A DNA stretch of 64,000 bases from IMG/VR virus record IMGVR_UViG_3300017989_000002; one strand, given 5' to 3'. This DNA is from a virus. Shown here one piece after another: positions 11,030 through 50,894 of this stretch. The notes under the pieces are model-generated. The model was not told the origin of the DNA. It did not search any database and saw only the letters and a list, made by a program, of their open reading frames with translations. Position 1 is the stretch's first letter; the number at the start of each line of letters is the position of its first letter. The position numbers were made by a program, and so were the translations under genes.

Positions 11030-11695
11030 CTACCGAGGAAGTCGCCCGGCGATTCCGGGTGGTGTTGCGGGCTGGGGGACCCCTGCCGCCGACGGCGACG
11101 TGGGCTTGGGGGGTGTGGGCTTCTTGTCGTCGCCGGCGGCAGGGGTCGGTGCGCCGGGAGTGCCTGGCTGCGCTTCTGCGCCGGCAGCAGCGGCCTGCTG
11201 CTGCTGTTGGGCCACGGCCTGCTCCATCGCACCCTGCTGTGCCTTCTCCTGGCCGACGGCCTCGGAGCGCTGCAGCATGGCTTCCTCGGGCTTCACCCAG
11301 CCAGGGTCGTCCTGCTTGGGAGTCATCGCGCCCAGGATGGGGTCGTAGACGTAGCCCGGCGGAGGAGCCAGCACGGGAATGCCGCGAGCTCCTCCCTTGC
11401 TCTTCGCCTCTGCCCTGACGCCCAGGAGGTCGTGGATGGGGCTGATCCGGTCCACCTCCCCCTCTTCCTGCGCTTCCATCTTGCCGGTCTCGTCGCTGTC
11501 GCCCCCAGAGTCGGCGGCGGCAGCCACCTTCTCGAGGTGAGGGAACGCCGCGGCCATGAGAGGAGTGCAGGTGCCTTCCTGGGCCACCTTCTCGATCTCG
11601 GAGATGAAGTGCTGCCGTGCGGAACGGCCGAAGACGGCCGCCTCGTACGCAAGGCGCGCATCCTCCTCCTCGAGCTCGGCGAGCGAGCGGCTCAT
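11030..11695 (-). CDS. KxA-motif virion/head protein
   Basis: FISEIEKVA and HLEKVAA; Q/P/A-rich tail. Confidence 0.65.
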   Translation of the reverse strand: MSRSLAELEEEDARLAYEAAVFGRSARQHFISEIEKVAQEGTCTPLMAAAFPHLEKVAAAADSGGDSDETGKMEAQEEGEVDRISPIHDLLGVRAEAKSKGGARGIPVLAPPPGYVYDPILGAMTPKQDDPGWVKPEEAMLQRSEAVGQEKAQQGAMEQAVAQQQQQAAAAGAEAQPGTPGAPTPAAGDDKKPTPPKPTSPSAAGVPQPATPPGIAGRLPR

Positions 11696-12393
11696 CGACG
11701 TGCCTCCCGGGCCTGGTCTCGGCTACGTCGCCACGCATCGAACCCGCCGTAGATGGCGAGAGGGGCGGTGCCCGCAACCATGGGTCCAAGTCTACGGCCC
11801 CAGACCTTCGCACGCAACCGTGCGCCGCCCTGCGGCTTGTACCGGGTGCGGAGCTGTCGCAGCACCTCGTCCAGGCTACCGGGGGCGACCTCGGGCCGGA
11901 CGGGTGCCTTGGGGCCGTCCGCGAAGCGGTTGACCTGGTCCCGGTAGATCTTCCTGACCTCGGGCTTCGACTTCCCGGGGAACATCTTCTCGACGGCGAA
12001 CAGGTTGGTCTCGTTGCTGCCCGCACGCACGCCAGCGACCTCGTCCAGGAGGTTCTGCGCGTTCTGGGAGATGACTCCCGCGTCGCGCCTCCGCAGGAAG
12101 TCGGTGATCTTGGCCGCCTCGTGCCGGGCGACGGGGGCGCTCTTCCCCTGGTAGTCCTGGATGTACTGCGTGACGAGGCTGTCCTCGAGGGCGCGCTGGT
12201 AGGCCGCCTTGCGAGCTCCCCGCCCGAACATGGCCTCGCCGATGGCGGCCACGCCGAGGGCTCCGGAGCTCGCGGCAGCCACCCCCTCCATGAACGCCTT
12301 GAAGCCGGAGGGCCCCTGCGCCGGACGCACGTCACCCGCCGCAGGCTGGACCGAGCCTGCGATGGACGACGGCGTCCGGGGAGTGGGGCTCAT
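11692..12393 (-). CDS. Basic hypothetical virion protein (MSPTPRTP...)
   Basis: TGATG coupling with sheath; Gly/Ala hydrophobic segments. Confidence 0.6.
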   Translation of the reverse strand: MSPTPRTPSSIAGSVQPAAGDVRPAQGPSGFKAFMEGVAAASSGALGVAAIGEAMFGRGARKAAYQRALEDSLVTQYIQDYQGKSAPVARHEAAKITDFLRRRDAGVISQNAQNLLDEVAGVRAGSNETNLFAVEKMFPGKSKPEVRKIYRDQVNRFADGPKAPVRPEVAPGSLDEVLRQLRTRYKPQGGARLRAKVWGRRLGPMVAGTAPLAIYGGFDAWRRSRDQAREARR

Positions 12394-16694: not shown

Positions 16695-16702
16695 GCAGCA
16701 TC

Positions 16703-17674: not shown

Positions 17675-18859
17675 TCACCCCGTGGAGTCGACGAAGCGCG
17701 CGCGCGACGTCGAGATCTGCGCGAACGAGGGCTTGAAGTCCGAGCGCGAGCGGTGGGTGTAGATGGCCACGCCAGCCTCGGTCCGCACCGCGCTGAAGCC
17801 GCTCTTGCCCGCTCGCCGCTTCAGGTCCGCCAGGTCGCGCTTGTCCTGCGGGGTGAGGGGCAGGCGCTTCTTGCCCGCGAACTTGGACGGGTCTCGGGAG
17901 GCCGCCACCTTCTCGACGTCGGAGGCCAGGCGCGTGGGCGCGGGAATGCCGTACGCTGCCTCGTACCAGACCTCGTCGTCCGAGGCGACGGTGTCGTTGA
18001 CCGGAAGGCCTGACGCGTTGACCCGGTCGCGGGCCAAGGACCGGACCGCTTCCGGAGGCTCCGCGACGGCCGCTGCTTGGGCGCGCGCGTGGCTCGTCAG
18101 ACGCTCGAACACCTCGGCATCGCTCAACCTACGCACCGGAAGCGCGATCTTCTCCATGTCCAGCAAGAGCGACGCCGCCTTCTGCATCGGGGGCTGGATG
18201 TTCATGCGGCGACGCAGCGCGTCCTTGCTCTTCTTCAAGGCTCCCGCCGCGATCACGCTGCCGGGGGCGGGGACCACGACCATCCCGGCGACGAGCGGGT
18301 CCTCTGCGAAGGCCCTGCTCATCTTCGCTGCCCGGCCGGACAAGTCCTCGCGCCGAGCCTTCGACAGACCCGGCAGGTGCTTCCCCTTCGTGTAGGGCAC
18401 CTCCCAGTCCAGGGCTCGCTTCACGCGGCTCTCCACGGCGTCCCCTGCGGCGTGGTGAGCCCTCACCAGGGCGTCACCCGTCTTCCGTGCCCCGAAGCGC
18501 CGTAGACCCGCCCCCAGGATGTCCAGGGCTGCGGTCTTCTCGCCCTCGGGCCACAGGACCTTGCGCGCCCAGTAGTTGGGGCTGAACGGATCGTCCTTGG
18601 TGGACCGGCCGTCCTTGCCCTTGATGCCGGCGCTGCGGCGCAGGTAGTTGGCCTTGGCCTTGTCCGAGTAGTTGTGCCGGTAGCCCTTCTGCCCGAAGTG
18701 GACGAGCTTCACCCTGTCGCCGCGCTTGACCAGCACCATCCTCTTCTTCTGGGCTCGGTCGCTGGCGATGGGCTGGTTGTAGCCAGGGAAGGTCTTGCCC
18801 CGGTAGGTCACCGAGGCGACCTTCTCCATGTCCGCGTCGAGGTCGGGGCTGAACGTCAT
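17675..18859 (-). CDS. Multi-module basic virion protein with KxA linkers; N-module resembles DUF5754-type viral domain
   Basis: KLVHFGQKGY...YLRR...DPFSPNYWARKVLW; C-module YTHRSRS...FVDSTG; five KxA sites. Confidence 0.65.
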   Translation of the reverse strand: MTFSPDLDADMEKVASVTYRGKTFPGYNQPIASDRAQKKRMVLVKRGDRVKLVHFGQKGYRHNYSDKAKANYLRRSAGIKGKDGRSTKDDPFSPNYWARKVLWPEGEKTAALDILGAGLRRFGARKTGDALVRAHHAAGDAVESRVKRALDWEVPYTKGKHLPGLSKARREDLSGRAAKMSRAFAEDPLVAGMVVVPAPGSVIAAGALKKSKDALRRRMNIQPPMQKAASLLLDMEKIALPVRRLSDAEVFERLTSHARAQAAAVAEPPEAVRSLARDRVNASGLPVNDTVASDDEVWYEAAYGIPAPTRLASDVEKVAASRDPSKFAGKKRLPLTPQDKRDLADLKRRAGKSGFSAVRTEAGVAIYTHRSRSDFKPSFAQISTSRARFVDSTG

Positions 18860-18925: not shown

Positions 18926-19651
18926 TCAGCGGTAGACGACGGTGGTCTTCTTGCCCTTGCTGCGTCCGGCCAGGTAGCCGCCGCCGGCGAGGGCAGCGCC
19001 GCCCGTACCCGCAGCCACGCCCGTGCCGATGAGCTCCTTCTTGAACTCACCGCCCAGGGCCTTGAGGCGCTCTCGGGCCTGCTCGCCCTTGGTCTTGCGC
19101 ACACCACGCAGAGGTCCGCGGCCCTGCTGGACCGGCCCCTGCATCGGGACGGGCGTCTTGGCGGCCTTGATGCCCGCCGCGTTGGCCTTGGTCACCCGGC
19201 GGGTGATGTTCCCCGCCACGTCGTCGATCTTGCCGGCCAGGAAGCTGCCGACGCCCGCCTGCTTGGCGAGGCCGGCTTCGGCGGCACGCCGCTCGAGCTC
19301 GGCCCGGATGCTGGACGCCACCTTGTCGAGGTCGTCGTCACCGCTGCCGTCGAACATGGCGCGCATCGCGGCACCCGCCTCGGCGTCGCCGGACAGGTAC
19401 CGTGCCTCCAGCTCGGAGAACTGCATCTGCGCCTGCGCACGGCCCGTGCGGTCGGCGTCGAGCAGGAACTCGTGAGCCTGGGCCACCTTCTCGAGGTCCA
19501 CCTGCTCCGGCACGTCGTCGCCGTACACGATGTGCACCGCGTAGTCGTCGAGACCGGGACGGCTCACCTGACCCTGGGCAGAGGAGGCGACCTTCTCGAA
19601 GGCGCCGCCCGTGTTGTAGATCAGGGCGAGGTCGAAGTTCGGCGACTCCAT
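18926..19651 (-). CDS. KxA-motif head protein (acidic N-half, basic Gly-zipper C-half)
   Basis: FEKVAS, LEKVAQ, LDKVAS, AKQAG. Confidence 0.7.
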   Translation of the reverse strand: MESPNFDLALIYNTGGAFEKVASSAQGQVSRPGLDDYAVHIVYGDDVPEQVDLEKVAQAHEFLLDADRTGRAQAQMQFSELEARYLSGDAEAGAAMRAMFDGSGDDDLDKVASSIRAELERRAAEAGLAKQAGVGSFLAGKIDDVAGNITRRVTKANAAGIKAAKTPVPMQGPVQQGRGPLRGVRKTKGEQARERLKALGGEFKKELIGTGVAAGTGGAALAGGGYLAGRSKGKKTTVVYR

Positions 19652-19701: not shown

Positions 19702-20556
19702 TCAGCCCTTGCGGTTCTTCTTCTTGCGACGGAGGCCGTAGGCGGTGGCCCCGGCGGCCGCGACGGGGGTGCCGTAGGCGGCACCGGTCTCGGCGACACC
19801 GCGGGCGAACTGCCGGGCGCCCTTGCGCTTGAGGCGGCGACCCTGGTGGGAGAACCGCTCGCCGATGCGGCGACCCGTGTTCTCCTTGCCGCGCGCCGCG
19901 AAGCGACGGCCCTTCTTGAAGGTGTCGACGCCGCCGCGCGCGCGCTTGGCGGTGAGCACGTCACGGGCGCCCTCGGCGAAGCGCTTCATGCCGCCCATCG
20001 CCGACGCGTCCTTCTCGAGCTCGTACTCGCCGGAGTCGAGCAGCTCCTGGAGCTCCGCGCCGTTGAGGTCGTCGAGGTCGATGAAGTCGGGCAGGTCGTC
20101 CTCGGCGGAGGCGAGCTTCTGCAGCTCGTCCACCTGGGCGCGAGCCATGATGCGGCCGGCCATGTCGGCGCGGTCGAAGTCGCCGTCGTCGATCATCGCC
20201 TCGACGAGAGCGGTCTCGGCGTGAGCCACCTTCTGCAGCTCGACCTCCTCGAGGTACTCGGCGAGCTCGGAGGCGGGGACGGTCGACAGGTCGACGCCCT
20301 CGAGGCCGGTGGCGACCTTCTCGGGACCCTCCTCGAGCTCGATCATGCCCTGGATGAGGTCCAGCGCCGAGATCTGGGAGAGGTCGACGTCCTCGATGCC
20401 CGGGACCGACGCGACCTTCTCGAAGTCGTCGTCACCGAGCGCCTGGACGTAGTCGGCGGCGGAGATGTTGGAGAGGTCGTCTGCGGTGAGCTCGGCGCCA
20501 GCGACCTTCTCATGGTCGGCGACGGACGAGCCGTAGATCTGGTCGAGGACGGACAT
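19702..20556 (-). CDS. KxA-repeat head/scaffold-like protein with basic C-terminus
   Basis: Repeats EKVA...DLSxISAxD/E; abrupt acidic-to-basic switch after LEKDASA. Confidence 0.7.
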   Translation of the reverse strand: MSVLDQIYGSSVADHEKVAGAELTADDLSNISAADYVQALGDDDFEKVASVPGIEDVDLSQISALDLIQGMIELEEGPEKVATGLEGVDLSTVPASELAEYLEEVELQKVAHAETALVEAMIDDGDFDRADMAGRIMARAQVDELQKLASAEDDLPDFIDLDDLNGAELQELLDSGEYELEKDASAMGGMKRFAEGARDVLTAKRARGGVDTFKKGRRFAARGKENTGRRIGERFSHQGRRLKRKGARQFARGVAETGAAYGTPVAAAGATAYGLRRKKKNRKG

Positions 20557-21092: not shown

Positions 21093-21269
21093 TCACTTCA
21101 GGGCGCGGATCTGGACGTGTCCCGGCTTCGAGGAGGGCAGGATGCTCAGCACACCCCGCTCTGCCTTGAGACGCACCGCAGTGGTCACCTTGCTCTCGAG
21201 GACGTCCACGGCCTTGCCGCCGATGGTCAGCAGGTGGCCGAGGACCGCACGAGTGGACGGCTTGTTCAC
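21093..21269 (-). CDS. Small hypothetical protein (58 aa, [10 protein letters not shown]...)
   Basis: Not in ORF track; AGGAGG RBS, GTGA overlap, fills the gap. Confidence 0.55.
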
Positions 21270-21871
21270 GCTGCCTCCTGCAGGGCCAGGATGCCGGCGA
21301 TGAGGTCGGCCTTGGCCCGGCCCTCGACGCCGAGGTCGTTGGCCAGGTCGCGGATGCTGCCCTCACCGGACCACGGCAACGCGGCGAGCGTCTCCTCGGT
21401 CCAGACGGTGGGCTCGGCCTCGGGCTCGGGAGCCTCGGGCTCGGGAGCCTCGGGCTCGGTCACAGGGTCAGCCTCGGAGGCAGGCTCCGGAGTCGGCTCG
21501 GGAGTCGGCTCGGGCTCGGGAGCAGGCTCGGGCTCGGGAGTCGGCTCGGGAGCAGGCTCGGGCTCGGGAGGCACGACCTCGGACGCAGCCTGGTCGACCT
21601 GGAGAACCTCGGGCTCCGAGGCCGTGCCCGAGATGTACGCCTGCAGGCCCTCGAGGCCGTCGGCCTCCCAGGCAGCTGCGGCGCCAGAGTCCGAGAAGGA
21701 GTCGACCACCAGCTGGCCGGACGCGAGGCGAACCTGCACACCGCGACCGCAGAACTCGGCGAGGGACACGCGGCACGTGTCCTTCCCGCCGGAGTAGCGC
21801 CCAGCGAGCGTGCGGTTCCCGTAGGTGACCGCACGCCGGTGTGCCGGGTTCCTGATGATGGCGAAGCCCAT
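21266..21871 (-). CDS. Protein with Pro-Glu linker and C-terminal Rho-N/HeH-like helical domain
   Basis: [12 protein letters not shown] repeats; [23 protein letters not shown]. Confidence 0.7.
21411..21570 (-). repeat. Low-complexity coding repeat ([13 protein letters not shown])
   Basis: Tandem GGCTCG/GGGAG units. Confidence 0.8.
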
Positions 21872-23559: not shown

Positions 23560-23937
23560 TCAGTAGGAGCCCGGATCCTGCGACGTGAGGAAGGAGGTGA
23601 GGACGTCGTCGCCATCGGCGGACGCCAGCTTCTCGTGCCCCTCGCCGAGCTCCCCGAGGGGTACGCCGGAGGTGGTGCGCTCCACGAAGTCGCCGAGGAC
23701 CTGGAGCGGGGTGTCGTCGTCGGACCAGCGCTCGACGAAGGAGTCGACGTCGGCGTCGTCCATGACGCCGCGGGTCACGCCTTCGGAGGCGATCTTCTCG
23801 AGCTCTTCACGCCGCTCGAAGCGCGCGTTCTTGGCTCGGAGCTCGCGGTTCTCGGCCGCGAGGCCCCGACACACGCCGGCGGTCTTGGTGAGGACCTGCT
23901 TGAGGTCGTCGACGGATGCGATCTTCTCGAGCGACAT
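23560..23937 (-). CDS. Putative scaffold-like coiled-coil protein with KxA motifs
   Basis: LEKIAS twice, TKTAG, HEKLAS; coiled-coil segment. Confidence 0.65.
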   Translation of the reverse strand: MSLEKIASVDDLKQVLTKTAGVCRGLAAENRELRAKNARFERREELEKIASEGVTRGVMDDADVDSFVERWSDDDTPLQVLGDFVERTTSGVPLGELGEGHEKLASADGDDVLTSFLTSQDPGSY

Positions 23938-23939: not shown

Positions 23940-24464
23940 TCAGGCTCCCTGCCGGCGGGCCTTCGCGGCCTTGGCGGCCTTGAGGCGTGCGTTGATGTCC
24001 TTGTGGTCCACCTTGCCACCGAGCACCTGCGGCGTGAAGCCGTCATCGTACGGGGTGTGGTCCAGGGCGGCGCCGAGGGCCGGCGCGTTCTGACGCGACA
24101 CGTCGCTGGGTCCAGCGGCGGCGGCGGCCTCCGCACTCGCGAGGGCGGGGTGGCTGGTGCCACGCTGCATGCGCAGCGTGTTGATGCCGGTGCCGTGACG
24201 AGGGACCTTCCGGCCCGCGTCGTTGTCGCCGGCCATCGAGCCGACCTCGCCGGCGGGGAGCTGGTAGGCCGAGGCGACCTTCTCGAGGCCCCCGTCGACC
24301 AGGTACTCGAGCACGCTGGCGACCTTCTCGGCCTCGTCGGCGAGCGTCTCGCCCTGGAACGCCTGCTCACGGACAGGGACGGTTCCGGTGTCGGCGGCCA
24401 CGGAGGGCGTGCCGTCTTCGATGCCGAGCTCGCTGTCGATCAGCTGAGAGAGCGTCTTGTTCAT
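23940..24464 (-). CDS. KxA-motif head protein (MNKTLSQL...)
   Basis: AEKVAS, LEKVAS. Confidence 0.65.
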   Translation of the reverse strand: MNKTLSQLIDSELGIEDGTPSVAADTGTVPVREQAFQGETLADEAEKVASVLEYLVDGGLEKVASAYQLPAGEVGSMAGDNDAGRKVPRHGTGINTLRMQRGTSHPALASAEAAAAAGPSDVSRQNAPALGAALDHTPYDDGFTPQVLGGKVDHKDINARLKAAKAAKARRQGA

Positions 24465-28839: not shown

Positions 28840-28865
28840 ACAGTGAAAAACCGTGCTCCAATGCA

Positions 28866-28882
28866 CAATAAGGAGAATGGAG
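28866..28882 (+). promoter_or_regulatory. Variant of the AYAAG...TGGAG promoter motif
   Basis: CAATAAGgagaaTGGAG in AT-rich gap upstream of ATG 28927. Confidence 0.5.
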
Positions 28883-28926
28883 GACGGAGAACCCGCCCCC
28901 CTGAACCACTGCCGAGGAACACCATC

Positions 28927-38821: not shown

Positions 38822-40360
38822 TCACCCCATCGAAGCGAACGACGAGGGGAGAGCGATGACGTTGGGTGCGCCGCCGGCGCCGACCGAGCCTGTGCCCTTG
38901 ATCGGGATGCCAGTCATGAAGTCGACCGGGTGGGACAGCGTGGTGACCACGGCTCCCGCTGGGCCCGCAGGTCCCTGCACCACGGTCCCGGAGTTGTCCA
39001 CGGAGATCGTACCTCCCGGCGTCGTGATGGACGCCCCCGTGCTGTTGAGCTCCACGACCACGGTCCCGGCCACGCCCTCCATCTTGATCGTGCCGTCGAG
39101 CTTCATCGTCACCTTGGAGAGGAGGGACTCCACGGTGGGTCCGACGCCGAACATGATGTCGTCCAGGGAGGCCTGCAGCAGGAGCTTGCCCTGGGCGACC
39201 TTGTGAACCGACCCGAACTCGTCGCCGTTCATGTTGGAGACGACGACGGACATGGCCCCCGCCACGATGTCCTCACTGTTCTCCCCCACCGTGCGGCTCG
39301 CACTCCCCCCGATCGTGTCCTTGAGGGAGGCGCCCGTAGAACGCACCTGGTTGCCCGCGACCTTGCGCACGGAGTCGCCGCCGACGTCGACGAGCTGCTT
39401 CTCGCCCACGGTCAGGACGTGGTTCCCTCGGGCCTGCCTCACGAGGGTTCCGGCGGACACGGTGTCGGCCTGGCCTGTCGTGACGGTGCGGGTGCGCGTC
39501 ACCTCTCGACGGACGTCGCCGAACTTGTCGATGAGCTTGCCGCGCACGGTCCTCGAGAGCTGGGACGCGAAGGACTGGACGACAGGCCCCTCGAAGGCGT
39601 GCACCGCGCCGCCGTAGACGACGGACGAGACGTTCCCGGCCCGGTCCACCCAGACCTTCGCCCCGTTGTTGATGTTCAGGACGGCGATGATCGAGTCGGT
39701 CTTGCCGAAGGGGAGCTGCTTGGCGTCCTCCTCCTGGACCCGCCCGGCTCGGACCTTGATGATGGGCTCGTCCTCGCTGAACTCCTTGAAGTCCAGCTTG
39801 AACTCGACCGGCGTGCGGTCCTCACCGTGCCGGTCGTCTTCCCGCCTCGAGGTCCAGGACATAGAGCCGGACGCCGCGGACACGAACCAGTTCTCGAAGT
39901 AGTCCCGGATGGTGTTGCGGATGGGGACGTAGAGGCGCTTGGCGAACTGGGTGGCCCCGAACTCGAGGACCCCGCTGGCCCGGAGCACGGCAAACCCTCC
40001 CTGCGCGCTCGACGCCAGCATGTGATCGCCCTCGTTGAGGACAGGACGGTTCTGACGGAAGTCGTTGGGGTCTTCCTGCGCGTCCCCCTCGTCGAGCTGC
40101 CTTGGCGGCGTCTCGCAGGCGAAGATGAAGGGTGTCCGGGCAGTAGAGGGGAACAGCAGCCAGACGACCGTCCCCTGCTCCAGCGTCAAGAACGACCCGG
40201 CACCGTCCGAATTCACGAAGGCGGGCACGTACTTGATGCCACGGTGCATGCCTCCGAACTTGTCCAGGACGTCGTAGTTGTGCGCCAGGGTGTTGACCGC
40301 CTGGACTACGCCCTTCACGACCCGGACGGGACGCAACCTGCCGTCGGTGGGGCCTCTCAT
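38822..40360 (-). CDS. Baseplate central spike (gp5/VgrG/GpV-like)
   Basis: N-terminal OB-fold pattern, ~8-residue VG/GN beta-helix repeats (VRKVAGNQVRSTGASLKDTIGG), tip motif HPVDFMTGIP. Confidence 0.7.
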   Translation of the reverse strand: MRGPTDGRLRPVRVVKGVVQAVNTLAHNYDVLDKFGGMHRGIKYVPAFVNSDGAGSFLTLEQGTVVWLLFPSTARTPFIFACETPPRQLDEGDAQEDPNDFRQNRPVLNEGDHMLASSAQGGFAVLRASGVLEFGATQFAKRLYVPIRNTIRDYFENWFVSAASGSMSWTSRREDDRHGEDRTPVEFKLDFKEFSEDEPIIKVRAGRVQEEDAKQLPFGKTDSIIAVLNINNGAKVWVDRAGNVSSVVYGGAVHAFEGPVVQSFASQLSRTVRGKLIDKFGDVRREVTRTRTVTTGQADTVSAGTLVRQARGNHVLTVGEKQLVDVGGDSVRKVAGNQVRSTGASLKDTIGGSASRTVGENSEDIVAGAMSVVVSNMNGDEFGSVHKVAQGKLLLQASLDDIMFGVGPTVESLLSKVTMKLDGTIKMEGVAGTVVVELNSTGASITTPGGTISVDNSGTVVQGPAGPAGAVVTTLSHPVDFMTGIPIKGTGSVGAGGAPNVIALPSSFASMG

Positions 40361-40965
40361 CAGCGACCCTTCTTGCGGCCGGGCCTGGTGGCGAGGGTCT
40401 TCGATGCCTCGTACGTGGCTGCATTGGTGGCTGCCTTGCCCACCGCCCCGGCGGCAGCCGCCAAGCCCGCGGCTCCGAGCGCCGCGCGACCCCTACGGGC
40501 GAGGACGCGCTTGACGCCGGGCGACGTCAGCGAGTCAGTCGCCGTCTCCGTGACCTTCTTCACCGTCGCGTCCGTGTTGGAGCTCCAGCCCTTCTCCTGC
40601 AATTCCTTCGCTGCCGCAATTCCTCCCTCGAGGGCGGAGTTGACCCCGGCCTTCCGCGCGGCGCCCTTCAGCGTGAGGTAGTCCTTGACCCCCTCCTGGA
40701 CCGCCTTCGCGGTCCCTCCCTTGCGCAGGAGAGAGATCTGCGGCGCCTTCCCTGTCACTGCACCTGTCGCAGCACCCAGGCCGGCACCGGCCGCGCCCGC
40801 CGCGCCGATGCCCTTGGAGTAGGCGAGTCCGCGATCGTCCTTCCCCGTCTTCTTGGCCCGAATCCCGTAGGAGCGGGCGTTGTCGCCCAGCTCCATGCCG
40901 ATGGCGACGGCGCACTTCTCCATCTCGTCGAGGAAGAACGGGACTGCGTCTTGCGGGATGAACAT
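40360..40965 (-). CDS. KxA-leader basic Gly-zipper protein
   Basis: FFLDEMEKCA leader; GAAGAAGAGLGAATGAVTG. Confidence 0.7.
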   Translation of the reverse strand: MFIPQDAVPFFLDEMEKCAVAIGMELGDNARSYGIRAKKTGKDDRGLAYSKGIGAAGAAGAGLGAATGAVTGKAPQISLLRKGGTAKAVQEGVKDYLTLKGAARKAGVNSALEGGIAAAKELQEKGWSSNTDATVKKVTETATDSLTSPGVKRVLARRGRAALGAAGLAAAAGAVGKAATNAATYEASKTLATRPGRKKGR

Positions 40966-40998: not shown

Positions 40999-43900
40999 TC
41001 AGTACTGGCCGCGCCAGTCCTTGACCTTGCCCTTGGTCTTGCCGAATTCGGAGCCCACCGCCAGCCCTGGGAGGGGATGGAAGCCGTGGATGTTGGACCG
41101 CCAGCCCTCGCGGAACGCCTGGGTCAGCGAAGACCCCAGGTCCTCGAAGTTGAGGCGGGCCAGCCAATCCTCCTTGAGCTCCTTCGGCAGCAGCTTGACA
41201 CCCTTCACCTGGGGCTCGTGAGCCACCGACTTCTTCCCTGCCCGGGCGGCCTTGCGGTTCCACGCGTTGACCTTGGTCACGGGGCGGATGTCGCCGGGCA
41301 CCCAGTCCGGGTGGTCTCCAGGGTCCTCGACGCGGGTGATGTCGGTCATGGCCTTGACCACGACCTCGATGTTGCGCCGCTTCACCGGGGCTGCCTTCTT
41401 GAGCACGCCCTGGATCTGGTCGGTCACGTAGTCCTGCATCTGGTGCAGGCCCCGTAGGTTCAGCACGTCTCGCGGGTTCTGGGGCCCCGTGGAGAGCGCG
41501 GTGCCGCGGGCCACACGCTGGCCCTTCTTCACCTTCAGGTCCTGCCCAGGAGGCACCCACAGCGTGGCGTCGCCCATGTAGACGTTGTGCCCGCCTCGGT
41601 CGGCCTTCTTCACGTCCTTCACCGTCCCCGACTGTGGGGCGAGCGGCGCCGTGAACGGCAGGTTCGTGTTGAGGGTGAGCAGCTCCTCGAGGCGCTTGAA
41701 GGTGCCCATCGAGTCGGAGCCGCGGCCCTTGGCCAGCCCGCCCTGGTGGAAGACGTTGAGGGACAGCTGGGTGCTGGGCTCTCCGACAGCCTGAGAGGCG
41801 ACGACGCCGAGGTTGTCTCCGATGTCGTAGGGACGCCCGTTCTCGGACAGGCCCATGCACTTCTTGCAGATCCCGTCCTCGGACTGGCACCTCGTCGGGG
41901 AGCGGACCTCGATCGCGCCCTTCCGGCCCTTCTTCGCGGCGGCCAGGAGGTGCGGCGTCACGACGGAGCCGCGGCGGTAGGTCTTGCCTCCGACGCGGAG
42001 GGGCTTGGCCAGGTAGCGGTCCAGGGCGTCGTGGTCGTCGACCGAGAGCTTCGTCCCGTCGCCCGTGCCGCAGTCGTCCTCCGTGACGAGCTGGTCCACG
42101 GTGCTGTTGATCATGAGGCGGGTCATGTAGCCTGGCATGGCCACGCCCTGCGTCTTCTGTAGGGTGCCCTTGCGCGCGCCGGCGAGCGTGACCCAGTACG
42201 CACTAGTGTCCAGGCCCTCCGAGTACGAGCTCGGCACCAGGAAGGGCACGACCTCGTCCTTGGCGTTCTTCACGAGCCCAGGCGTCGAGATGATCTGCTT
42301 GAGCTGCTCCGGCTTGCCTCGCGAGCCCGACGTCACCATCTGGTAGATGTTGGTCGGGTCCGCCTTCAGCTTCTGGGTCGTCAAGGCGTCGATGCGGTCG
42401 GTCGCCTTGTCCAAGATCGACAGGACCTCAGCGGACTTGCGCTTCCTGCCCTGCCGCAAGAGTGCGTCGACTTCCCGGTTCGACTCCCCGATGATCCGGT
42501 CCCGCTTGGCCTTGTTCACGACCCGGAAGTCGTCCAGGCCGATGGAGAAGGCCTCCTTGTACGAGTGCTCGTTCCCGAGCATCGTCAGGGCGTTGGTGAC
42601 CTTGCCGTAGTCCTGCTCGTGCTCCCGTCCGAGGCGGGACAGGAGTCCCTTCATCCTCTTGGCGTCGAGCACCGTCATGTCCTTGACCTTCCGCTTCCCC
42701 GTCTCGCGGTACTGCGCGGGGAGGACGGACTCGACGCGAAGGCGGCCCAGCGTCGTCTCCGCGCCACCGACGCGCACGATGTCGTCGAGGTTCAGGTTGC
42801 CCGTCCGGAACGCCTTCTCGGCCTCGGCCTGCGTCTTGAAGGTCTTCGAGGTCTTCTTCCCCGGCTTCGTCATCAGGTACAGGCCGAGCAGCGCCTCGTG
42901 CCCCGGGGTGTGCATGATCGCGCCGGTCGTCGGGCTGAAGAGGTTCTTCGAGGGGAACATCTTGGTGGCTTCGCGAGCCGCCTGGTCCGAGATGGGGACG
43001 TAGACCGACATGGCATCGCCGTCGAAGTCGGCGTTGAAGCCTCCCACGGCCAGGGGGTGCATCTCCAGCGCCGAGCCCTTCACGAGCCTGGGCCGGAACG
43101 CCTGGACGTTGAACTTGTGGAGGGCGGGGTCGCGCTTGAACAGGACCGGGCGCTGGCTCATCGCTCGCTCGAGGGCGTGGCGCGACCTGTCCGACTTCTT
43201 GGCGTACTCCTCCTCGGCGTCGAGGTAGCCCATGCCCTCCCGGACGAGCTCGCGCTCGGCGAAGGGCTGGTAGAGCGTCCACGCGATCTTCTCGGGGATT
43301 CCCAGCTCGTCGAGGTCCTGGCCGGGCTCCACCGTGATGGTCGACCGAGCACTGAAGTCCTGCCGCTTGCGCAGCATGTTCTTGCGGAAGAACCCCTCCT
43401 TCGAGCGGCCCCCGTCGCTGCCGTCGCTGCGCCGCACCTTGCCGGTGATGAGGTCGATGATGCCCTTGTAGCTGTCGTCCTGGCTCGACCGCGCGCGCCG
43501 ACTGATGTTGCCGCCGACGCCAGACAAGGCCTTCACCCCGTCGTAGACGCCCTTGCGGATGGGAGCCATGGACACGTAGTCCATGTGCACGTCCTTGAGC
43601 TTCTGGAGGCCCTCGGCCGTGAACGCGACGTCCTTGTACAGGAAGTTGAGGTCGTTGGTCATGAGCCGGCCGTCGGCCTGGGGCGTGACCGGGCGGAAGC
43701 GTGGCGGGAGGACCGGCACCGACCGCATCATGTAGACCGACGGGTCGAGGCCTCCCTCGTTGAGCGCGCGCACGATCCGGTAGCGCTTGTACGCCTTGTC
43801 CCGAGTCGCACCGGGCTTGAGGGACGACAGCCGCTCCTTGAGGCGCTTCTCCTCGGCCTTCACGTCGATGCCGGAGAGCATCTCCTCGATGGCTTCACCG

Positions 43901-46900
43901 CCGCGCTTGCCGTTGACCTGCGTCTCGCCGCTCACCAACTTGTTGAACTTGGCCTGGTTGATGCCCAGGAGCTTCTTGATGGCGTCCTCGAAGACCGGGT
44001 TCGGGATGGCCTCGGGAAGCTCGAACCGCGACCAGCGGTCGCCGTCGACGCCGCCGGTGATCTCGGGGTCGAACAGGCCGCCCCGGATCGGCTCCGCCGT
44101 GGTGGAGTGGAGCACGAGGCCTGGCTGTGGAAGCGCCTTGGGAGCCAGGGCCTTCACCTGGTCCTCGGTGAAGGGCATGAGCTGGAGGCTGTTGCCGTTG
44201 CGCCGCACGTTGACTCGCACGCCGTTGAGCATGCTGAGGAACTTCTCGTACACGAAGGGCGCCTTCGGGGGAGGCAGGGGCGTTCCTTCCCGAAGGGCGT
44301 CCCACAGAGCCGTGTTCCGCTCGCCCTTGTACGCCTGCATCTCGTGCAGGTTCTCCCGCGCGCCGTGCGCCAGGAGGGCGTAGGTGCCCAGCTCGCCCAG
44401 GGACTGCCCGCCGTGGGGAGCTCCGGAGCTGGGGGCGTGGTTGATGTCGTAGGGGGAGGTGCTGCCGCCCGATGCCGTGCGGCCCGACCCAGAGCCAGAG
44501 CGCGCGCTCACCTTCTTGTCGACCTGGTGGCGCAGCTTGTAGAAGTACTGCTGGCCGACGGCGGCGCGCTGGCGGAACGGCTTCTCCGTCTCAGGGTCGA
44601 ACAGGACCTCCTTGCCGTCCTCGGAGAACCCAGCGGCGCCAAGGTCCTTGGCCACCTGCGCCGTGTAGTCCGAGATCTCGGGATCGAAGTTCTTGACCTT
44701 GTAGACCTGACCCTTCCTGGCCGCGACCTTGCCCGCCGCCGTCTCCTGGACCTGACCGAGGTTGATGCGGCCTGGGATCCCCATCGGGTTCAAGGCGATG
44801 TCGAGGACCTTCTTCTCCCCGTCCTCTTCGACGTAGGGCATCTGAGAGTCGGTCATGATGCGGGTGATGACGCCCTTGTTGCCGTGACGCCCCACGAGCT
44901 TGTCGCCGACCTTGGCGGGCTCGGCCGTGCGGACGTGCACGACGACGCGCTCGACTCCTCGCTCCTTGAGCCGCTGAATGCGGACGACCTCGCCTTCGAC
45001 GTCCTTATCCCAGGTGATGGCACCGGAGACGAAGCGACGGGAGTTCCTCCGGCCTCGCTTCGGACGACCCGGGCGCGCGTCCGTGGGGTCGTGAAGCGCC
45101 AGCAGGAGAGGGTCCCCCTTCGACACACGTGCCCCGACCTTGACCACGCCGTCGTCCTGCACGTTCTCCAGCTGCCCCTTGTTGAACAGGGCTGGGTAGG
45201 AGTTGACGAACTTGCGCCGGTCGACCTGGGAGCTCTTGCCAAGGGTCGTCTCGGGCTTGTGGACGTGCTCGGAGGTGAGCTTGCCCGCCGCCGTCTCCGA
45301 GATGACGATGCCGTCCTCGAAGTTGTAGCCCTTGAGAGGCAGGTACCCGGTGCGGAGGTTGGTGCCGAGGGCCAGGACGCCATCGCGGGTGAAGGTGGTG
45401 TCGGCTACCACGTCCCCGGCCTTCACGGCGTCTCCTGCCTTGACCTTGACCTCCGAGTCGTAGAGCGAATTCGCCTTCGACCCGAAGTTGCGGAATAGGG
45501 CGACCTTGTGGCTCTTGCCTCCCGCGTCCTTGATGACCACGGCGTCCTTCTGGACCTGGGTCACGGTGCCGGCGACCGGGCTGGTTCGAGCCACTCGCTT
45601 GCCGAGCTCCTCCTCGAAGGTCTTGCCCGAGTCCGACAGTACCTGGACCAGAGGGGCTTCCCTGTGCTTGAGCGGCACCGCCTGCTCGGCCTGGCGGGAG
45701 GCCGTCATGGTGCGGTTGCCCTGGTCCGAGGACAGGAAGGGGATGAGGTTCGACGTGATGCCGAACATCTCCCGGGGAGAGGGCATGATGTAGTCGACGC
45801 TGCGAGGAGCGACGTCGGTGATCTCGCCGTCCTTCTGGACCAGGACGCGCTTCTTGCGCGCCACCCGCTTCCGGCCCGACTCCCGGTACTCGTCCGGGAA
45901 GGCCACGGACTTGCCTTGGAGCTGGGTCGGGTCGAGCCAGACCGTCTTGCCGGTCTTCGCGTCGATGAACCGGGACTCGAGCTTCCGCCCCTTCTTGCGC
46001 GTGCCCAGGGGGATGGAGAGCGTGATGCCCAAGCGGGGGCCCTCCGGCGTGTGCACGGGGTCGAGGAACCCGAGCTGGCTCGGGTCGATCATCTTCGCCT
46101 CGTCGGAGACGACGTGCTCCGACCGGATGCCTCCGTGAGGGCCCATGAGCGTCGTGCGGCGCGAGGCCGACAGCGCCTGCAGCGGGTTGATGAGCTCGGT
46201 CTGGTTCGCCAGGGAGGTCGAGAAGAAGCTGTTGAAGGGACGCTGCAGCGCCTCGCTGGGCATCATGGCCCGCACGCCGCCCTTCTCCTTCCGGGCCATC
46301 GCCGACTTCACCCGGCGCTGGATGGCCTTCTTGCTCTTCCGGAGCTGGTCACCGAACAGCTCCGGGGCTCCCGCGATGCGCTGGAACTCCATCGCCTCCT
46401 GGTTGTCCTCCGGGTCTCCCTTCACGATGCCGACCAGCTTCTTGGCACTCTGCAGCAGGACGTCGGGCGTGACCTCCTTGGCGTCCATGCCCAACGTCCG
46501 GCGCGTCGTCTCGGGGTAGAGCTCCGTCTCGGCCAGCTTCTCCTTGAGCACGGACTCCGTCTCGTCGACCTTCACCCCGAGCCACCGCGCCAGTCGAGCA
46601 CGGGACTTCTTGGGCTGGGACGCCTTGAGGCTCGAGGACCACACGCTCTCGGGCAGCACGGCCTTGATCTTCGAGTCGTCGGTTCCTGCCATGCGGAGGA
46701 AGTCCACGAGCGGGATCTTCGACGTCCCCCGCATGACCGCCACTTCCGACGTCGCGGGGTCGTACTGGACCTTCATCCGCCGGCCCGCGAACTGGCTGCG
46801 GTTCGCGAGGTTGAAGTCGGCTACCGCATCGCCGCTCTCGCGCATGCGGTGGTAGACACCGGACTTTCGCGTGAACAGGTTGGAGATGTGGTACTCGTTG

Positions 46901-47202
46901 CCGTTGTAGATGTACGAGCCCCTCTCGGTCATCCGAGGGAGGTCCATCACCTTGAGCCGGCGGCGCGACACGTCCTTGCCATTGCGCGACAGGACCACGT
47001 CGGCCTCGACAGGCACTGCCCACGTCTTCCCGTTGTCGATGGCGTCCGACTGGGCCGTCACGTCGTCGGGGTTCTTGGTGTCGCGGACCGCGACGTTCTC
47101 GAGGCGGATGCTGTCCCGGCCGTTCTCGACGGGGAACACCTCGGTCAGCGCCTCGGCGACCTCACGCTTCACGCTCTCGAAGCTGTCGACTGGGTTGGAC
47201 AC
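40999..47202 (-). CDS. rpoBC: Single-chain fused beta-beta' DNA-directed RNA polymerase
   Basis: Beta motifs TPEG, GYNFEDG, GDKLVGRHGNKG, RINLGQ, KLRHQV, GGQSLGE followed in the same frame by beta' motifs GGLFD, VLPPRFRP, KRQDFSAR, RDPALH, NADFDGD, SGSRG, GARKG, GEPSTQL. Confidence 0.95.
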   Translation of the reverse strand: MSNPVDSFESVKREVAEALTEVFPVENGRDSIRLENVAVRDTKNPDDVTAQSDAIDNGKTWAVPVEADVVLSRNGKDVSRRRLKVMDLPRMTERGSYIYNGNEYHISNLFTRKSGVYHRMRESGDAVADFNLANRSQFAGRRMKVQYDPATSEVAVMRGTSKIPLVDFLRMAGTDDSKIKAVLPESVWSSSLKASQPKKSRARLARWLGVKVDETESVLKEKLAETELYPETTRRTLGMDAKEVTPDVLLQSAKKLVGIVKGDPEDNQEAMEFQRIAGAPELFGDQLRKSKKAIQRRVKSAMARKEKGGVRAMMPSEALQRPFNSFFSTSLANQTELINPLQALSASRRTTLMGPHGGIRSEHVVSDEAKMIDPSQLGFLDPVHTPEGPRLGITLSIPLGTRKKGRKLESRFIDAKTGKTVWLDPTQLQGKSVAFPDEYRESGRKRVARKKRVLVQKDGEITDVAPRSVDYIMPSPREMFGITSNLIPFLSSDQGNRTMTASRQAEQAVPLKHREAPLVQVLSDSGKTFEEELGKRVARTSPVAGTVTQVQKDAVVIKDAGGKSHKVALFRNFGSKANSLYDSEVKVKAGDAVKAGDVVADTTFTRDGVLALGTNLRTGYLPLKGYNFEDGIVISETAAGKLTSEHVHKPETTLGKSSQVDRRKFVNSYPALFNKGQLENVQDDGVVKVGARVSKGDPLLLALHDPTDARPGRPKRGRRNSRRFVSGAITWDKDVEGEVVRIQRLKERGVERVVVHVRTAEPAKVGDKLVGRHGNKGVITRIMTDSQMPYVEEDGEKKVLDIALNPMGIPGRINLGQVQETAAGKVAARKGQVYKVKNFDPEISDYTAQVAKDLGAAGFSEDGKEVLFDPETEKPFRQRAAVGQQYFYKLRHQVDKKVSARSGSGSGRTASGGSTSPYDINHAPSSGAPHGGQSLGELGTYALLAHGARENLHEMQAYKGERNTALWDALREGTPLPPPKAPFVYEKFLSMLNGVRVNVRRNGNSLQLMPFTEDQVKALAPKALPQPGLVLHSTTAEPIRGGLFDPEITGGVDGDRWSRFELPEAIPNPVFEDAIKKLLGINQAKFNKLVSGETQVNGKRGGEAIEEMLSGIDVKAEEKRLKERLSSLKPGATRDKAYKRYRIVRALNEGGLDPSVYMMRSVPVLPPRFRPVTPQADGRLMTNDLNFLYKDVAFTAEGLQKLKDVHMDYVSMAPIRKGVYDGVKALSGVGGNISRRARSSQDDSYKGIIDLITGKVRRSDGSDGGRSKEGFFRKNMLRKRQDFSARSTITVEPGQDLDELGIPEKIAWTLYQPFAERELVREGMGYLDAEEEYAKKSDRSRHALERAMSQRPVLFKRDPALHKFNVQAFRPRLVKGSALEMHPLAVGGFNADFDGDAMSVYVPISDQAAREATKMFPSKNLFSPTTGAIMHTPGHEALLGLYLMTKPGKKTSKTFKTQAEAEKAFRTGNLNLDDIVRVGGAETTLGRLRVESVLPAQYRETGKRKVKDMTVLDAKRMKGLLSRLGREHEQDYGKVTNALTMLGNEHSYKEAFSIGLDDFRVVNKAKRDRIIGESNREVDALLRQGRKRKSAEVLSILDKATDRIDALTTQKLKADPTNIYQMVTSGSRGKPEQLKQIISTPGLVKNAKDEVVPFLVPSSYSEGLDTSAYWVTLAGARKGTLQKTQGVAMPGYMTRLMINSTVDQLVTEDDCGTGDGTKLSVDDHDALDRYLAKPLRVGGKTYRRGSVVTPHLLAAAKKGRKGAIEVRSPTRCQSEDGICKKCMGLSENGRPYDIGDNLGVVASQAVGEPSTQLSLNVFHQGGLAKGRGSDSMGTFKRLEELLTLNTNLPFTAPLAPQSGTVKDVKKADRGGHNVYMGDATLWVPPGQDLKVKKGQRVARGTALSTGPQNPRDVLNLRGLHQMQDYVTDQIQGVLKKAAPVKRRNIEVVVKAMTDITRVEDPGDHPDWVPGDIRPVTKVNAWNRKAARAGKKSVAHEPQVKGVKLLPKELKEDWLARLNFEDLGSSLTQAFREGWRSNIHGFHPLPGLAVGSEFGKTKGKVKDWRGQY

Positions 47203-47243
47203 TCATCCCCTCCTGGGCTTCTACCCTAGCGCGAGGAGGGCAC

Positions 47244-49151: not shown

Positions 49152-49812
49152 TTCGTGGTCTCCGCAGGTGCACCGCCTGGTCCATGAGCTCCTGGCGGAA
49201 CTCGGCGAGGTCCTCCCGCACGGCCAACACCTCGTTCAACTGTACCTCGGCGGGACTGTCCGGGTTGGCGAAGGGCCGGCTCCGCGAAGCCAGGAGGTGA
49301 CGCACCTGGTCGAAGGGGAGGTCCAGCTTCTTGTCCTCCACGTACTCGGTGATGACCGGCCGCGAGATGTCCAGTGGGGCCTCGAGGTACCACAGACCGT
49401 CGTGCAGGCAGGCCGCGCCGATGTAGGCCACCACGTCGTAGTGGAAGTCGGGCTGGGCGAGTTCGGCCATGGTCAGGAGCGTCCGGGCCACGTCCTCGGC
49501 CTCGGGCGGCTGCATGTAGGCGAAGTCTGGCATCTCGCCGGCGACGGCAGAGACCACCTTCTCGAACACGCCCCACTCCTCCCACGCCATGTCGTTGGTG
49601 GCCAGGAGGCGCCCTGCCTGCACGCGGTTCCACGCGACGTCGCCGAGGCCTCCGAAGCGCTCGGTGATCTCCTCCCGCAGAGCCGCAGAGTCGAGGTCCC
49701 TGTAGGACGGTCCCAGGTGCGCCAGGAGCAGGCGATGAAGAACGAGGAGGTGGGTGCCTGCCTCGTCATCGAACGGCCCCGGCGCGCGCAGAAGTGGCGC
49801 GGATGCCGTCAT
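49144..49812 (-). CDS. Hypothetical protein
   Basis: High GC3; coupled between KxA protein and portal. Confidence 0.65.
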   Translation of the reverse strand: MTASAPLLRAPGPFDDEAGTHLLVLHRLLLAHLGPSYRDLDSAALREEITERFGGLGDVAWNRVQAGRLLATNDMAWEEWGVFEKVVSAVAGEMPDFAYMQPPEAEDVARTLLTMAELAQPDFHYDVVAYIGAACLHDGLWYLEAPLDISRPVITEYVEDKKLDLPFDQVRHLLASRSRPFANPDSPAEVQLNEVLAVREDLAEFRQELMDQAVHLRRPRNG

Positions 49813-50894
49813 CCCCCGACACCCCATCCCATGACGATGCGACCGAGGATGGTGGAGAGGCGGGGAGGCGCGGACTTGTAGGTCGCCACCGGGTCGCGAG
49901 AGAACTTGTCCGCGAAGTCGCTGCCGAACATGTCCCGGATCCGGACCATGACGCTGCTGTTGGCCGCCGCGTCGATGAACTCCTGCTCGGGAACTCCTGC
50001 TCGGTACTCCTTCTGCGTGGCCAGATCGATGCGCTCGACCTTGGCGACCTTCGTCATGCAGGAGTCGTAGGCATCGAACAGCTCGCGTCCCCAGGACTCG
50101 GAGAGCCCGGTGCGCCGGTCGAAGTGGGCCAGGCCCTGTGCGAGCTCGAGCGGGGCGACGTCGCCGGCGACGGAGGCGATCTTCTCGAGGGCCTGCACGT
50201 GCTCGACCGGCGCCTCACGCTCCTCGAGGATGTGCCTGCGGGTCAGGAAGTGGGACTGCCAGGACGGGTTGAGGTCCCGTCCCGCGCTCTTCTCCAGCGA
50301 CTCGGGCACTCGCATGCCGGCGTCTTCCGCCGCCTGGGCGACGTTGAACGCGAACTCGTGCCGGTCCTCGGGGTCCATGCGGACGGCGTTGTCGTCGAAG
50401 TAGTGGACGGCCGCCTTGATCTCCTGGGCCGACGAGAGGGGGAAGCGCTCGCCGAGGGCGTAGCTCTCCTCCCCCGGGGCCTCCGCGACCTTGGTCACCT
50501 CCTGGCCACCCTCCAGCATCACGTAGGGGGTTCCGTGATTCTCCGTGTCGCGGAGATCGTCCAGGAGTGCAGGGACGCCGAGGCCGTACCGCCGGCAGGA
50601 GTACGCCAGCCGAGCGGCAGCCACCTTCTCCGCCTCGGGGGGAAGGTCTCCGTGCGTCTCCCCGAAGTACATCACCGACAGCGCGGTGTGGCCGGGACTG
50701 GACATGAGGAAGCGCGGCTCCCTCTCGCGTCCGTCCGTGAGGACGACAGCGAAGTCGGCGTCCTGGTGACCCTCCCGCTCCGTGGCCTCGGCCGTCTTCA
50801 CGACGTCCGGAAGGGTGGAGGGGTCGGGGAAGTGCTCCTTGAGGAGGGCACCGCCGTCGTCGAACACATCGAGGGTCGCAGGCTGCAGGGTCAT
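49809..50894 (-). CDS. KxA-motif head protein (MTLQPATL...)
   Basis: VKTAE, AEKVAA, TKVAE, LEKSAG, LEKIAS, TKVAK. Confidence 0.7.
   Translation of the reverse strand: MTLQPATLDVFDDGGALLKEHFPDPSTLPDVVKTAEATEREGHQDADFAVVLTDGREREPRFLMSSPGHTALSVMYFGETHGDLPPEAEKVAAARLAYSCRRYGLGVPALLDDLRDTENHGTPYVMLEGGQEVTKVAEAPGEESYALGERFPLSSAQEIKAAVHYFDDNAVRMDPEDRHEFAFNVAQAAEDAGMRVPESLEKSAGRDLNPSWQSHFLTRRHILEEREAPVEHVQALEKIASVAGDVAPLELAQGLAHFDRRTGLSESWGRELFDAYDSCMTKVAKVERIDLATQKEYRAGVPEQEFIDAAANSSVMVRIRDMFGSDFADKFSRDPVATYKSAPPRLSTILGRIVMGWGVGG

Follow-up and report, generated by a model that had tools for sequence, protein, structure and literature searches.

The window analysed here is a stretch of 64,000 nucleotides (bases 28233-92232, minus strand) of the IMG/VR virus record IMGVR_UViG_3300017989_000002, the 174,678-bp genome of an uncultured phage (~175 kb) with direct terminal repeats and a GC content of 68%. 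A megablast search with 15 kb of sequence as query found no match to cultured phages at the nucleotide level. Gene calling with a codon log-odds model gave 74 genes in the window and 241 in the whole genome (55,275 aa), and these calls coincided with the open reading frames (ORFs) named in a preliminary description of the same DNA. Between positions 11,030 and 50,894 lie genes for an HK97-fold major capsid protein, a portal, a large terminase, a tail sheath, a gp5-like spike and an RNA polymerase, together with ORF 24949-26535, a predicted capsid-maturation serine protease (Table 1; ORFs are cited below by their lower coordinate). We describe a short peptide motif built around Lys-x-Ala (K-x-A) that recurs in proteins encoded around the protease and capsid genes, and its probable relation to this protease.

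Over-representation of the Lys-x-Ala motif

All gapped patterns of 3 to 5 residues were enumerated without bias over the whole proteome (241 ORFs), with expectations derived from each protein's own composition. The most over-represented patterns were EK.AS (16 vs 0.84 expected), EKVA (17 vs 1.1) and LEK.A (18 vs 1.3), and EK.A also stood near the top of the list (53 vs 15.6). An iterated position-specific scoring matrix (PSSM) gave the consensus [E/D]-[L/M]-E-K-[V/L/T/I]-A-[S/A/G]-[A/V]; 99% of the sites have the Lys, 97% the Ala and 61% a Glu before the Lys, and Ser (36%), Ala (21%) or Gly (16%) follows the Ala. At a threshold of at least 11 bits, 71 sites were found in the proteome against 3.3 in shuffled proteomes, a ratio that is somewhat inflated (see below). 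Specifically, the pattern K[VLTI]A[SAG] occurred 31 times in the 13 ORFs named by the preliminary description, where 1.6 were expected, and 23 times against 0.4 when a hydrophobic residue was additionally required two positions before the Lys. The sheath, terminase, portal, RNA polymerase and spike together contained 2 (1.4 expected), and the remaining 223 ORFs contained 12 (12.1 expected). The over-representation of the motif is thus confirmed.

The carriers are not paralogues, their mutual similarity being confined to the leaders described below. The 71 sites are encoded by 51 distinct 12-mers and the codon use at the motif Ala is that of the genome, indicating that the signal resides at the protein level and is not a DNA repeat. 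Both a DNA-level repeat and paralogy were ruled out as sources of the motif by this codon and 12-mer diversity and by the comparison of the carriers.

The preliminary description had reported the motif, by eye, in about 19 otherwise unrelated ORFs, with at least 13 copies in ORF 34114. Every example it quoted is present in the called ORFs, 20 ORFs between positions 11,030 and 50,894 carry a site of at least 9 bits, ORF 34114 has 14 K-x-A of which 10 are strong, and the enrichment that it proposed to check lies far above compositional expectation (31 vs 1.6); the carriers are indeed unrelated outside their leaders. Its further statement that the motif is rare in proteins outside the head is borne out for the sheath, terminase, portal, RNA polymerase and spike (2 vs 1.4), and the division into head and tail proteins can be argued only from these few genes of identifiable function. 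Most of the ~40 window ORFs searched in Pfam, PHROGs and NCBIfam had no match, which makes a clean head/tail split impossible. Among the controls, the portal has no site of at least 9 bits, and the RNA polymerase contains 16 K-x-A (13.1 expected) with no strong site.

The predicted protease ORF, its family and its bracketing motif sites

ORF 24949 comprises a predicted propeptide (residues 1-42), a catalytic domain (~58-272) with the T4 gp21/assemblin fold and a helical C-terminal part. The AlphaFold 2 (AF2) model of residues 1-300, built from an alignment of 80 sequences, reached a pLDDT of 86.8. In a VIA-align comparison of this model, T4 gp21 ranked first (5jbl_A, Z 9.7, rmsd 2.8, 130/165 residues), rows 2-34 were all herpesvirus proteases (Z 4.7-8.0), and unrelated folds began at Z 4.4. 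Foldseek likewise placed gp21 first (probability 0.92, E 0.012) and gave the same order with weak E-values. A search of the profile of this ORF against PDB sequences found nothing.

Residues N81, N83, D85, H144, N146, S200-M-G and D208 are invariant in 80/80 relatives, with 56 residues between H144 and S200. Position 222, 21-22 residues after the Ser, is acidic in 70/80 relatives (Asp at 221 in this phage). In SPN3US gp245, the triad H77/S153/D178, with 25 residues from Ser to Asp, aligns with the T4 gp21 triad (PMC5694885). The third catalytic residue of the present family is probably acidic, as in T4, and not a second His. A conserved cluster of Cys residues also follows the presumed catalytic Ser at residues 210-226 (C210 in 73/80, C224 in 71/80 and His or Cys at 226 in 67/80 relatives; this phage has C213 as well) and looks like a small metal-binding insert. 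T4 gp21 is not known to have such an insert.

The family is large. With an E cut-off of 0.001, a profile search returned 3,252 cluster representatives, 1,327 of them still at E up to 1e-30, and in a separate word-based search all relatives with a source name, among the matches listed, were called hypothetical. Cultured homologues are Salmonella phage Arash gp222 (36.7% identity, 8e-35), proteins of three Vibrio phages and, weakly, Bacillus phage G gp19 (29.9%, 4e-10), which is annotated as a head maturation protease (PMC12484599). The gene order of terminase, two ORFs, protease, four ORFs and capsid is kept in relatives, and is similar in Arash gp222-gp226 and phage G gp19-gp27.

Several relatives have unusual architectures. 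Two homologues of 951 aa (L007:3811-6666 and L010:3788-6643) contain an intein-like insert of ~400 aa, with Cys as its first residue and His-Asn as its last, located between a conserved W-G and the invariant N-V-N-G-D. Many members found by the profile search are 900-1700 aa long with 2-4 matched stretches. In three relatives (P0239, P0240 and P0249), an inorganic-pyrophosphatase-like domain (PF18823) directly follows the protease domain; the fusion would join a cargo enzyme to the protease at the place where the protease of the window has its post-domain K-x-A. In L006:1666-6075, the protease domain (39% identity to residues 29-271) opens a 1469-aa ORF with nine K-x-A-(S/A/G/Q) matches, which would be a much longer protease-cargo polyprotein.

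The motif occurs in ORF 24949 itself with Lys at 40, 269, 418, 452 and 483, and the peptides LEKTAG, LEKVAQ, MSKTAG, VKTAA and TKTAS are present in it. Across 80 diverse relatives in the family, the consensus of the N-terminal site is [L/F/I/M]-x-K-x-A-[G/S/A] (K40 in 77/80, A42 in 79/80), and that of the site where the last strand of the domain ends is [M/L]-x-K-[L/V/I]-A (K269 in 67/80, A271 in 59/80). Both sites fall in stretches where the confidence of the AF2 model drops, at the edges of its confidently folded core or next to them. Among 248 full-length relatives, the N-terminal site is present in 92%, and a site ~47 residues before the C-terminus (K483 here) in 54%.

The motif is also repeated through the syntenic head module of nine metagenomic relatives, whose capsid proteins share 41-61% identity with the present one and whose GC contents are 49-64%; all nine have K-x-A at capsid residues 20-25 (KEKLA, KDKIA, KTKIA). 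In the same alignments, the motif Lys was conserved in 60% of cases against 42% for other Lys residues, and the motif Ala in 58% against 33% (p 1e-6). K-x-A was kept nearby in 70% of orthologue comparisons, and individual sites were gained and lost among relatives, as expected for short linear motifs. In Arash (53% GC), gp220, gp223 and gp225 carry 10, 8 and 7 sites, respectively, and the capsid protein gp226 has LVKEA at 27. In phage G gp19, the corresponding borders are marked by LVKTAA, LEKVAS and LLKIAS.

The preliminary description had named ORF 24949 as the putative prohead protease and had attributed to it a K-x-A specificity. The modelled fold (gp21 at Z 9.7) and the invariance of His144 and Ser200 in 80 relatives support the first assignment, and the bracketing of the catalytic domain by K40/A42 and K269/A271 throughout these relatives argues for the link between motif and enzyme. 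A specificity unlike the Glu-ending rules of T4 and phiKZ is in keeping with the near-invariant Lys and Ala, Glu preceding the Lys in just 61% of sites. The expected recurrence of the motif in homologous phages was found in the head modules of the nine relatives and Arash. The mature capsid start proposed there, A25 (AVSQAF), would fit cleavage behind the Ala; the nine relatives and Arash all retain K-x-A there.

Motif carriers, fragment layout and acidic leaders

The multi-site carriers cluster around the protease and capsid genes (ORFs 17675, 18926, 19702, 23560, 23940, 24539, 26535 and 27320), with ORFs 34114, 49809 and 11030 in addition. The capsid protein has a single site, I20-E-K-T-A24 followed by A25 (nt 22853-22870), from which the removal of a 24-residue N-terminal peptide is predicted. 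ORF 23560 is possibly a scaffold, and its K48 site is kept in 4/4 orthologues; sites K184 and K236 of ORF 27320 are conserved across 6 orthologues.

Division of several carriers at their sites yields a recurrent layout, in which a run of mostly acidic pieces (pI, isoelectric point, ~4.1-4.5) leads up to a basic last piece with a pI of 9.8-12 (ORFs 18926, 19702 and 23940). ORF 19702 gives five acidic pieces (pI ~4.1-4.5) and then a 100-aa piece of pI 12.0, and ORF 18926 gives three acidic pieces (pI ~4.1-4.2) and one short basic piece (20 aa, pI 8.5), followed by a 109-aa piece of pI 11.1. In ORF 17675, residues 12-107 match 'minor head protein and DNA pilot' (phrog_220 at 2.8e-25; phrog_7595 over 16-103), and this DNA-pilot-type module is exactly bounded by the first two motif sites.

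The homologues of ORF 34114 share invariant K239/A241 and K558/A560, and the other sites are lineage-specific. No fold or family was found for this protein in the ESM Atlas, by a profile search of the PDB or by a pattern scan of viral contigs. The possibility that it is the portal was rejected, as hhalign to the phage G portal gp14 gave a probability of 0.1, whereas ORF 47244 matches that portal at 1e-10.

A further group of ~20 proteins, many of them encoded outside the window, has a single site at residues 3-25, defining a short acidic N-terminal leader, for example, MLQDAFVEEMEKLA, MDPFRAELEKLA and MFIPQDAVPFFLDEMEKCA. In all, 22 proteins carry a site within residues 3-25. Among single-site proteins, the site lies in the first 32 residues in 14/26, against 4.1 expected. 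Where the first site lies in the first 32 residues (n=22), the fragment after the last site has a pI above 9 in 15/22 cases, against 34/202 motif-free ORFs (p 1e-6); the median pI of the proteome is 5.4. The similarity of the leaders extends past the core motif, as D-A-F-x-x-E-L/M-E-K-x-A. This leader system, ~20 proteins genome-wide in which an acidic leader ending in the motif is usually followed by a very basic product, is new here.

Near-identical leaders of 19 residues stand on two unrelated basic proteins, ORF 40360 on the minus strand and, outside the window, the plus-strand genome ORF G000:C1:173068-173619, whose leader is MIVPPDAAPFFLAEMEKCA. Moreover, a stretch of 27 residues around one of the sites of ORF 19702 recurs as the leader of G000:C1:19433-19885 (plus strand), again outside the window. 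From these comparisons, the leaders seem to move between genes as modules.

Table 1 Motif carriers, motif-free controls and neighbouring genes in the window (aa, amino acids; site positions refer to the motif Lys)
Feature	Coordinates	Strand	Remarks
221-aa protein	11030..11695	-	sites K36, K56
Tail sheath, 1063 aa	12393..15584	-	phrog_2839 and phrog_279; K-x-A 1 vs 2.4 expected; motif-free control
394-aa protein	17675..18859	-	sites K13, 108, 237, 317
241-aa protein	18926..19651	-	sites K20, 55, 110, 130
284-aa protein	19702..20556	-	five strong sites, K17, 47, 109, 147, 182
Acidic 201-aa protein	21266..21871	-	motif-free
HK97-fold major capsid protein, 346 aa	21887..22927	-	phrog_2522 at 3.4e-05; NF042927 (HK97-fold major capsid protein) at 3e-06, below its cut-off
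125-aa protein between protease and capsid	23560..23937	-	sites K5, K18, K48, K103; SLEKIAS, ELEKIAS, HEKLAS
174-aa protein	23940..24464	-	sites K47, K62; AEKVAS, LEKVAS; acidic fragments, then basic 110-aa C-terminal piece
133-aa protein	24539..24940	-	sites K24, K76; both kept in 3/3 orthologues
Predicted capsid-maturation serine protease, 528 aa	24949..26535	-	fold match and invariant His/Ser
262-aa protein	26535..27323	-	sites K88, K107
289-aa protein	27320..28189	-	sites K10 (leader MSAEETFMEKLA), K140, K184, K236; QEKVAS twice
Two plus-strand ORFs	28255..29241	+	
Large terminase	29311..30984	-	phrog_675 at 7e-40; no motif site; motif-free control
Leader-type putative substrate	33605..34114	-	leader MDPFRAELEKLA, then 157-aa product of pI 10.9
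641-aa conserved protein	34114..36039	-	14 K-x-A, 10 strong, mostly 45-52 residues apart
Leader-type putative substrate	37257..38153	-	leader MNVSVEMEKVG, then 287-aa product of pI 10.8; Gly at the Ala position of the motif
gp5-like spike	38822..40318		function identifiable
Leader-type putative substrate	40360..40965	-	leader MFIPQDAVPFFLDEMEKCA, then 182-aa product of pI 10.4
Fused beta-beta' RNA polymerase, 2067 aa, one chain	40999..47202	-	Pfam Rpb2 and Rpb1 domains; motif-free control
Portal, 635 aa	47244..49151	-	BLASTP to phage G portal gp14, E 1e-10; motif-free control
361-aa protein upstream of portal	49809..50894	-	sites K90, 135, 202, 238
60-aa Lys-rich ORF	62150..62332	+	outside positions 11,030 to 50,894; 18-aa leader ending EQEKTA, then 42-aa product of pI 10.1

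Three neighbouring features were also recorded. The motif-free RNA polymerase ORF, which adjoins the portal gene, joins beta (Rpb2 domains 3, 6 and 7) to beta' (Rpb1 domains 1-5), whereas in Arash beta and beta' are encoded separately and both are abundant in virion preparations (PMC10585845). Directly downstream of the capsid gene, the 201-aa protein is very acidic, with Pro/Glu repeats and a weak match to procyclin-like repeats, and its role may be that of a decoration or spacer protein. Between the terminase and the protease block, two plus-strand ORFs break the minus-strand head operon; one of them has no Lys at all and weakly matches an excisionase/regulator family.

A candidate capsid-protease recognition site and its counterparts

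We consider it likely, from the sequence patterns and the modelled fold, that ORF 24949, as the phage's own capsid-maturation serine protease and a sequence-divergent member of the gp21/assemblin fold, recognises the motif [E/D]-[L/M]-E-K-[V/L/T/I]-A-[S/A/G] and cuts at it. A prohead would be assembled from the capsid protein, the portal, the protease zymogen, acidic scaffold-like proteins and cargo proteins. The protease would then cut, most likely after Ala (Lys at P3, Ala at P1 and Ser/Ala/Gly at P1'), trimming the capsid protein by 24 residues and releasing its own catalytic domain of ~229 residues from the 42-residue propeptide and the helical C-terminal extension. The acidic proteins encoded around the capsid gene would be chopped into peptides of 15-60 residues, and short acidic N-terminal leaders would be removed from ~20 proteins, mostly very basic, that would remain in the head with the DNA. 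By analogy with the capsid targeting sequence of T4 (PMC9026906), the leaders may double as targeting tags.

The cut is placed after Ala because the Ala and the small residue next to it behave like P1 and P1', because the enzymes of T4, phiKZ and SPN3US, which have the same fold, read P3-x-P1 (L/I-x-E in T4, S/A/G-x-E in phiKZ, and A-x-E then S in SPN3US; PMC5694885, PMC10052503), and because herpesvirus sites end in Ala with Ser or Thr next to it, as in YLQA-T and VQA-S of pseudorabies virus (PrV; PMC4498786).

Several points weigh against this interpretation. Cleavage itself and the scissile bond are what we infer from the sequence pattern, in which Lys is as invariant as Ala, so that a cut after Lys would be possible. 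ORF 24949 has no match in Pfam (E up to 0.1) or NCBIfam and matches only PHROGs of unknown function (16951 and 2774); with the fold of capsid proteases and no curated-family match, it falls into a separate sequence family within that fold. His144 and Ser200 are the presumed catalytic pair by virtue of their invariance. Most carrier ORFs have no recognisable function, and the label 'head protein' rests largely on gene neighbourhood. ORF 34114 is conserved over its whole length despite its 10-14 sites, of which only two are invariant in distant homologues, and some of these sites may lie inside the fold and escape cutting, or have a different function. Because the PSSM was trained on the same genome, its counts are partly circular and the ratio of 71 to 3.3 is somewhat inflated. 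The virion proteome paper on Arash gives coverage values only and does not mention a protease; the capsid coverage of 86.6% is compatible with a lost N-terminus but uninformative (PMC10585845).

Four other readings were weighed. An origin in chance or composition, or in a DNA-level repeat translated into protein, might be suggested by a genome that is 68% GC and Ala-rich and by ORFs originally chosen by eye. We give it practically no weight, since the composition-matched expectation is exceeded 19- to 60-fold, the unbiased k-mer scan puts the motif first, the 12-mers are diverse with genome-typical codon use, and the motif persists in relatives at 49-64% GC. With motif and protease both kept, the bond cut could instead be the one after Lys, x-A-S then being the first residues of the product; Lys is the most invariant position (99%), and in HK97 the capsid protein is cleaved after a Lys by the phage protease. 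This choice of bond appears unlikely, as the Ala two residues on is equally fixed (97%) and the next residue is restricted to Ser, Ala or Gly, the usual pattern of P1/P1' and not of P2'/P3'. Moreover, the enzymes of the same fold with described rules read P3-x-P1, the herpesvirus ones with Ala at P1 (PMC4498786, PMC5694885).

A purely docking or capsid-targeting function, in which the motif is bound by the scaffold, the portal or the protease but left uncut, would suit the leaders, which share more than the core (D-A-F-x-x-E-L/M-E-K-x-A) and occur in identical form on unrelated proteins, as a transferable address tag would. A pure tag, however, explains neither 4-14 copies within one protein, nor sites exactly at module borders, nor sites bracketing the protease's own catalytic domain throughout the family, nor acidic pieces strung ahead of a basic end piece. 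T4 has a targeting sequence as well as a cleavage site (PMC9026906), so one function need not preclude the other, and we hold the tag-only explanation to be improbable. It is very improbable that a different enzyme, a host or another phage protease, cuts the sites while ORF 24949 has another role. The link between enzyme and motif is drawn from sequence and fold, and this ORF matches no curated protease family, which leaves that option some room; on the other side, the motif travels with the protein family across phages of Salmonella (Arash) and Bacillus/Lysinibacillus (phage G) and high-GC metagenome phages, it is built into the family's own domain borders, and the fold is that of capsid proteases.

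Taken as the protease recognition site, the motif would represent a familiar maturation process in which the cutting rule is new and the protease family unnamed. Experimentally known cutting rules of head proteases cover few phage groups, and the described ones end in Glu; when the literature was searched for phage proteases with a Lys-x-Ala or Ala-Ser rule, the only rules retrieved were those of T4, phiKZ and SPN3US, which end in Glu. The family of ORF 24949 counts more than 3,000 metagenomic clusters (at 50% identity) and has cultured representatives in Arash, phage G and three Vibrio phages. We lean somewhat towards the broader view that this very large, unnamed group consists of phage capsid proteases that cut after Ala in Lys-x-Ala-(Ser/Ala/Gly), a herpesvirus-like P1/P1' rule, and that the rule defines a packaging system of an acidic leader or spacer plus a basic product. 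If so, thousands of 'hypothetical' genes of metagenomic phages could be annotated as capsid proteases, the family being unnamed in Pfam, NCBIfam and PHROGs. Mature capsid and cargo proteins would become predictable, here ~20 proteins with leaders, most of them very basic and encoded at scattered places in the genome, and the sequence could show directly which proteins are packaged into the head and travel with the DNA. The divergence of substrate specificity between phage and herpesvirus proteases of one fold would also gain a data point. The proposal is directly testable, since virion data from liquid chromatography-tandem mass spectrometry already exist for the cultured relative Arash.

Among the closest known counterparts are Arash gp222 ('structural protein') and phage G gp19, sequence homologues with the motif at the same domain borders. 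The papers on Arash (PMC10585845) and phage G (PMC12484599) describe no cleavage motif. In Arash, head-module proteins and the capsid protein carry the motif too, but unlike in the present phage the residue before the Lys is not preferentially Glu (LVKEA, LTKQA). At the equivalent position, the phage G capsid protein shows R-V-A.

Capsid-maturation serine proteases of the gp21/assemblin fold form MEROPS clan SH, with families S21, S77, S78 and S80. Within it, T4 gp21 (PDB 5jbl; S77) is the best structural match, at Z 9.7. The two systems are alike in having one head protease for the capsid protein, itself, scaffold-like proteins and cargo (here predicted from sequence), in a three-residue core (P3-x-P1, presumed here), and in short N-terminal leaders on basic internal proteins that end in the cleavage motif. 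The present protease differs from gp21 in having no detectable sequence similarity to Pfam models and in its length of 528 aa, with a long C-terminal extension bearing further sites and a Cys-rich insert. Where the T4 motif ends in Glu, the present one ends in Ala and would have Lys at P3; the predicted capsid propeptide is just 24 residues long, unlike in T4.

As in phiKZ (gp175) and SPN3US (gp245; S80), many head and ejection proteins share one motif, and some propeptides contain it in several copies (PMC5694885, PMC10052503). A protease that cuts itself after the catalytic domain (here predicted) and an encoded RNA polymerase of the multisubunit type are further similarities; in Arash, the RNA polymerase subunits are among the most abundant proteins detected in the virion preparation (PMC10585845). 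The rule is K-x-A here and S/A/G-x-E or A-x-E there, the sequence family is different, the present phage is ~175 kb, and its single-chain beta-beta' polymerase is motif-free.

Unlike herpesvirus assemblin (S21), the present enzyme has an additional N-terminal propeptide site, a third catalytic residue that is probably acidic and not a second His, and dozens of putative substrates instead of one scaffold protein. P3 would be Lys here and is Val or Leu, hydrophobic residues, in the PrV sites YLQA-T and VQA-S. The fold is the same (Z 4.7-8.0 for ~30 entries), and a cut behind the motif Ala would have Ala before it and often Ser after it, which may be compared with Ala and then Ser or Thr in herpesviruses. 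In its sequence pattern, the present protease also resembles pUL26, in which the protease domain is followed by a release (R) site directly after it, a helical region and a further, maturational (M) site ~30-55 residues before the C-terminus (PMC4498786).

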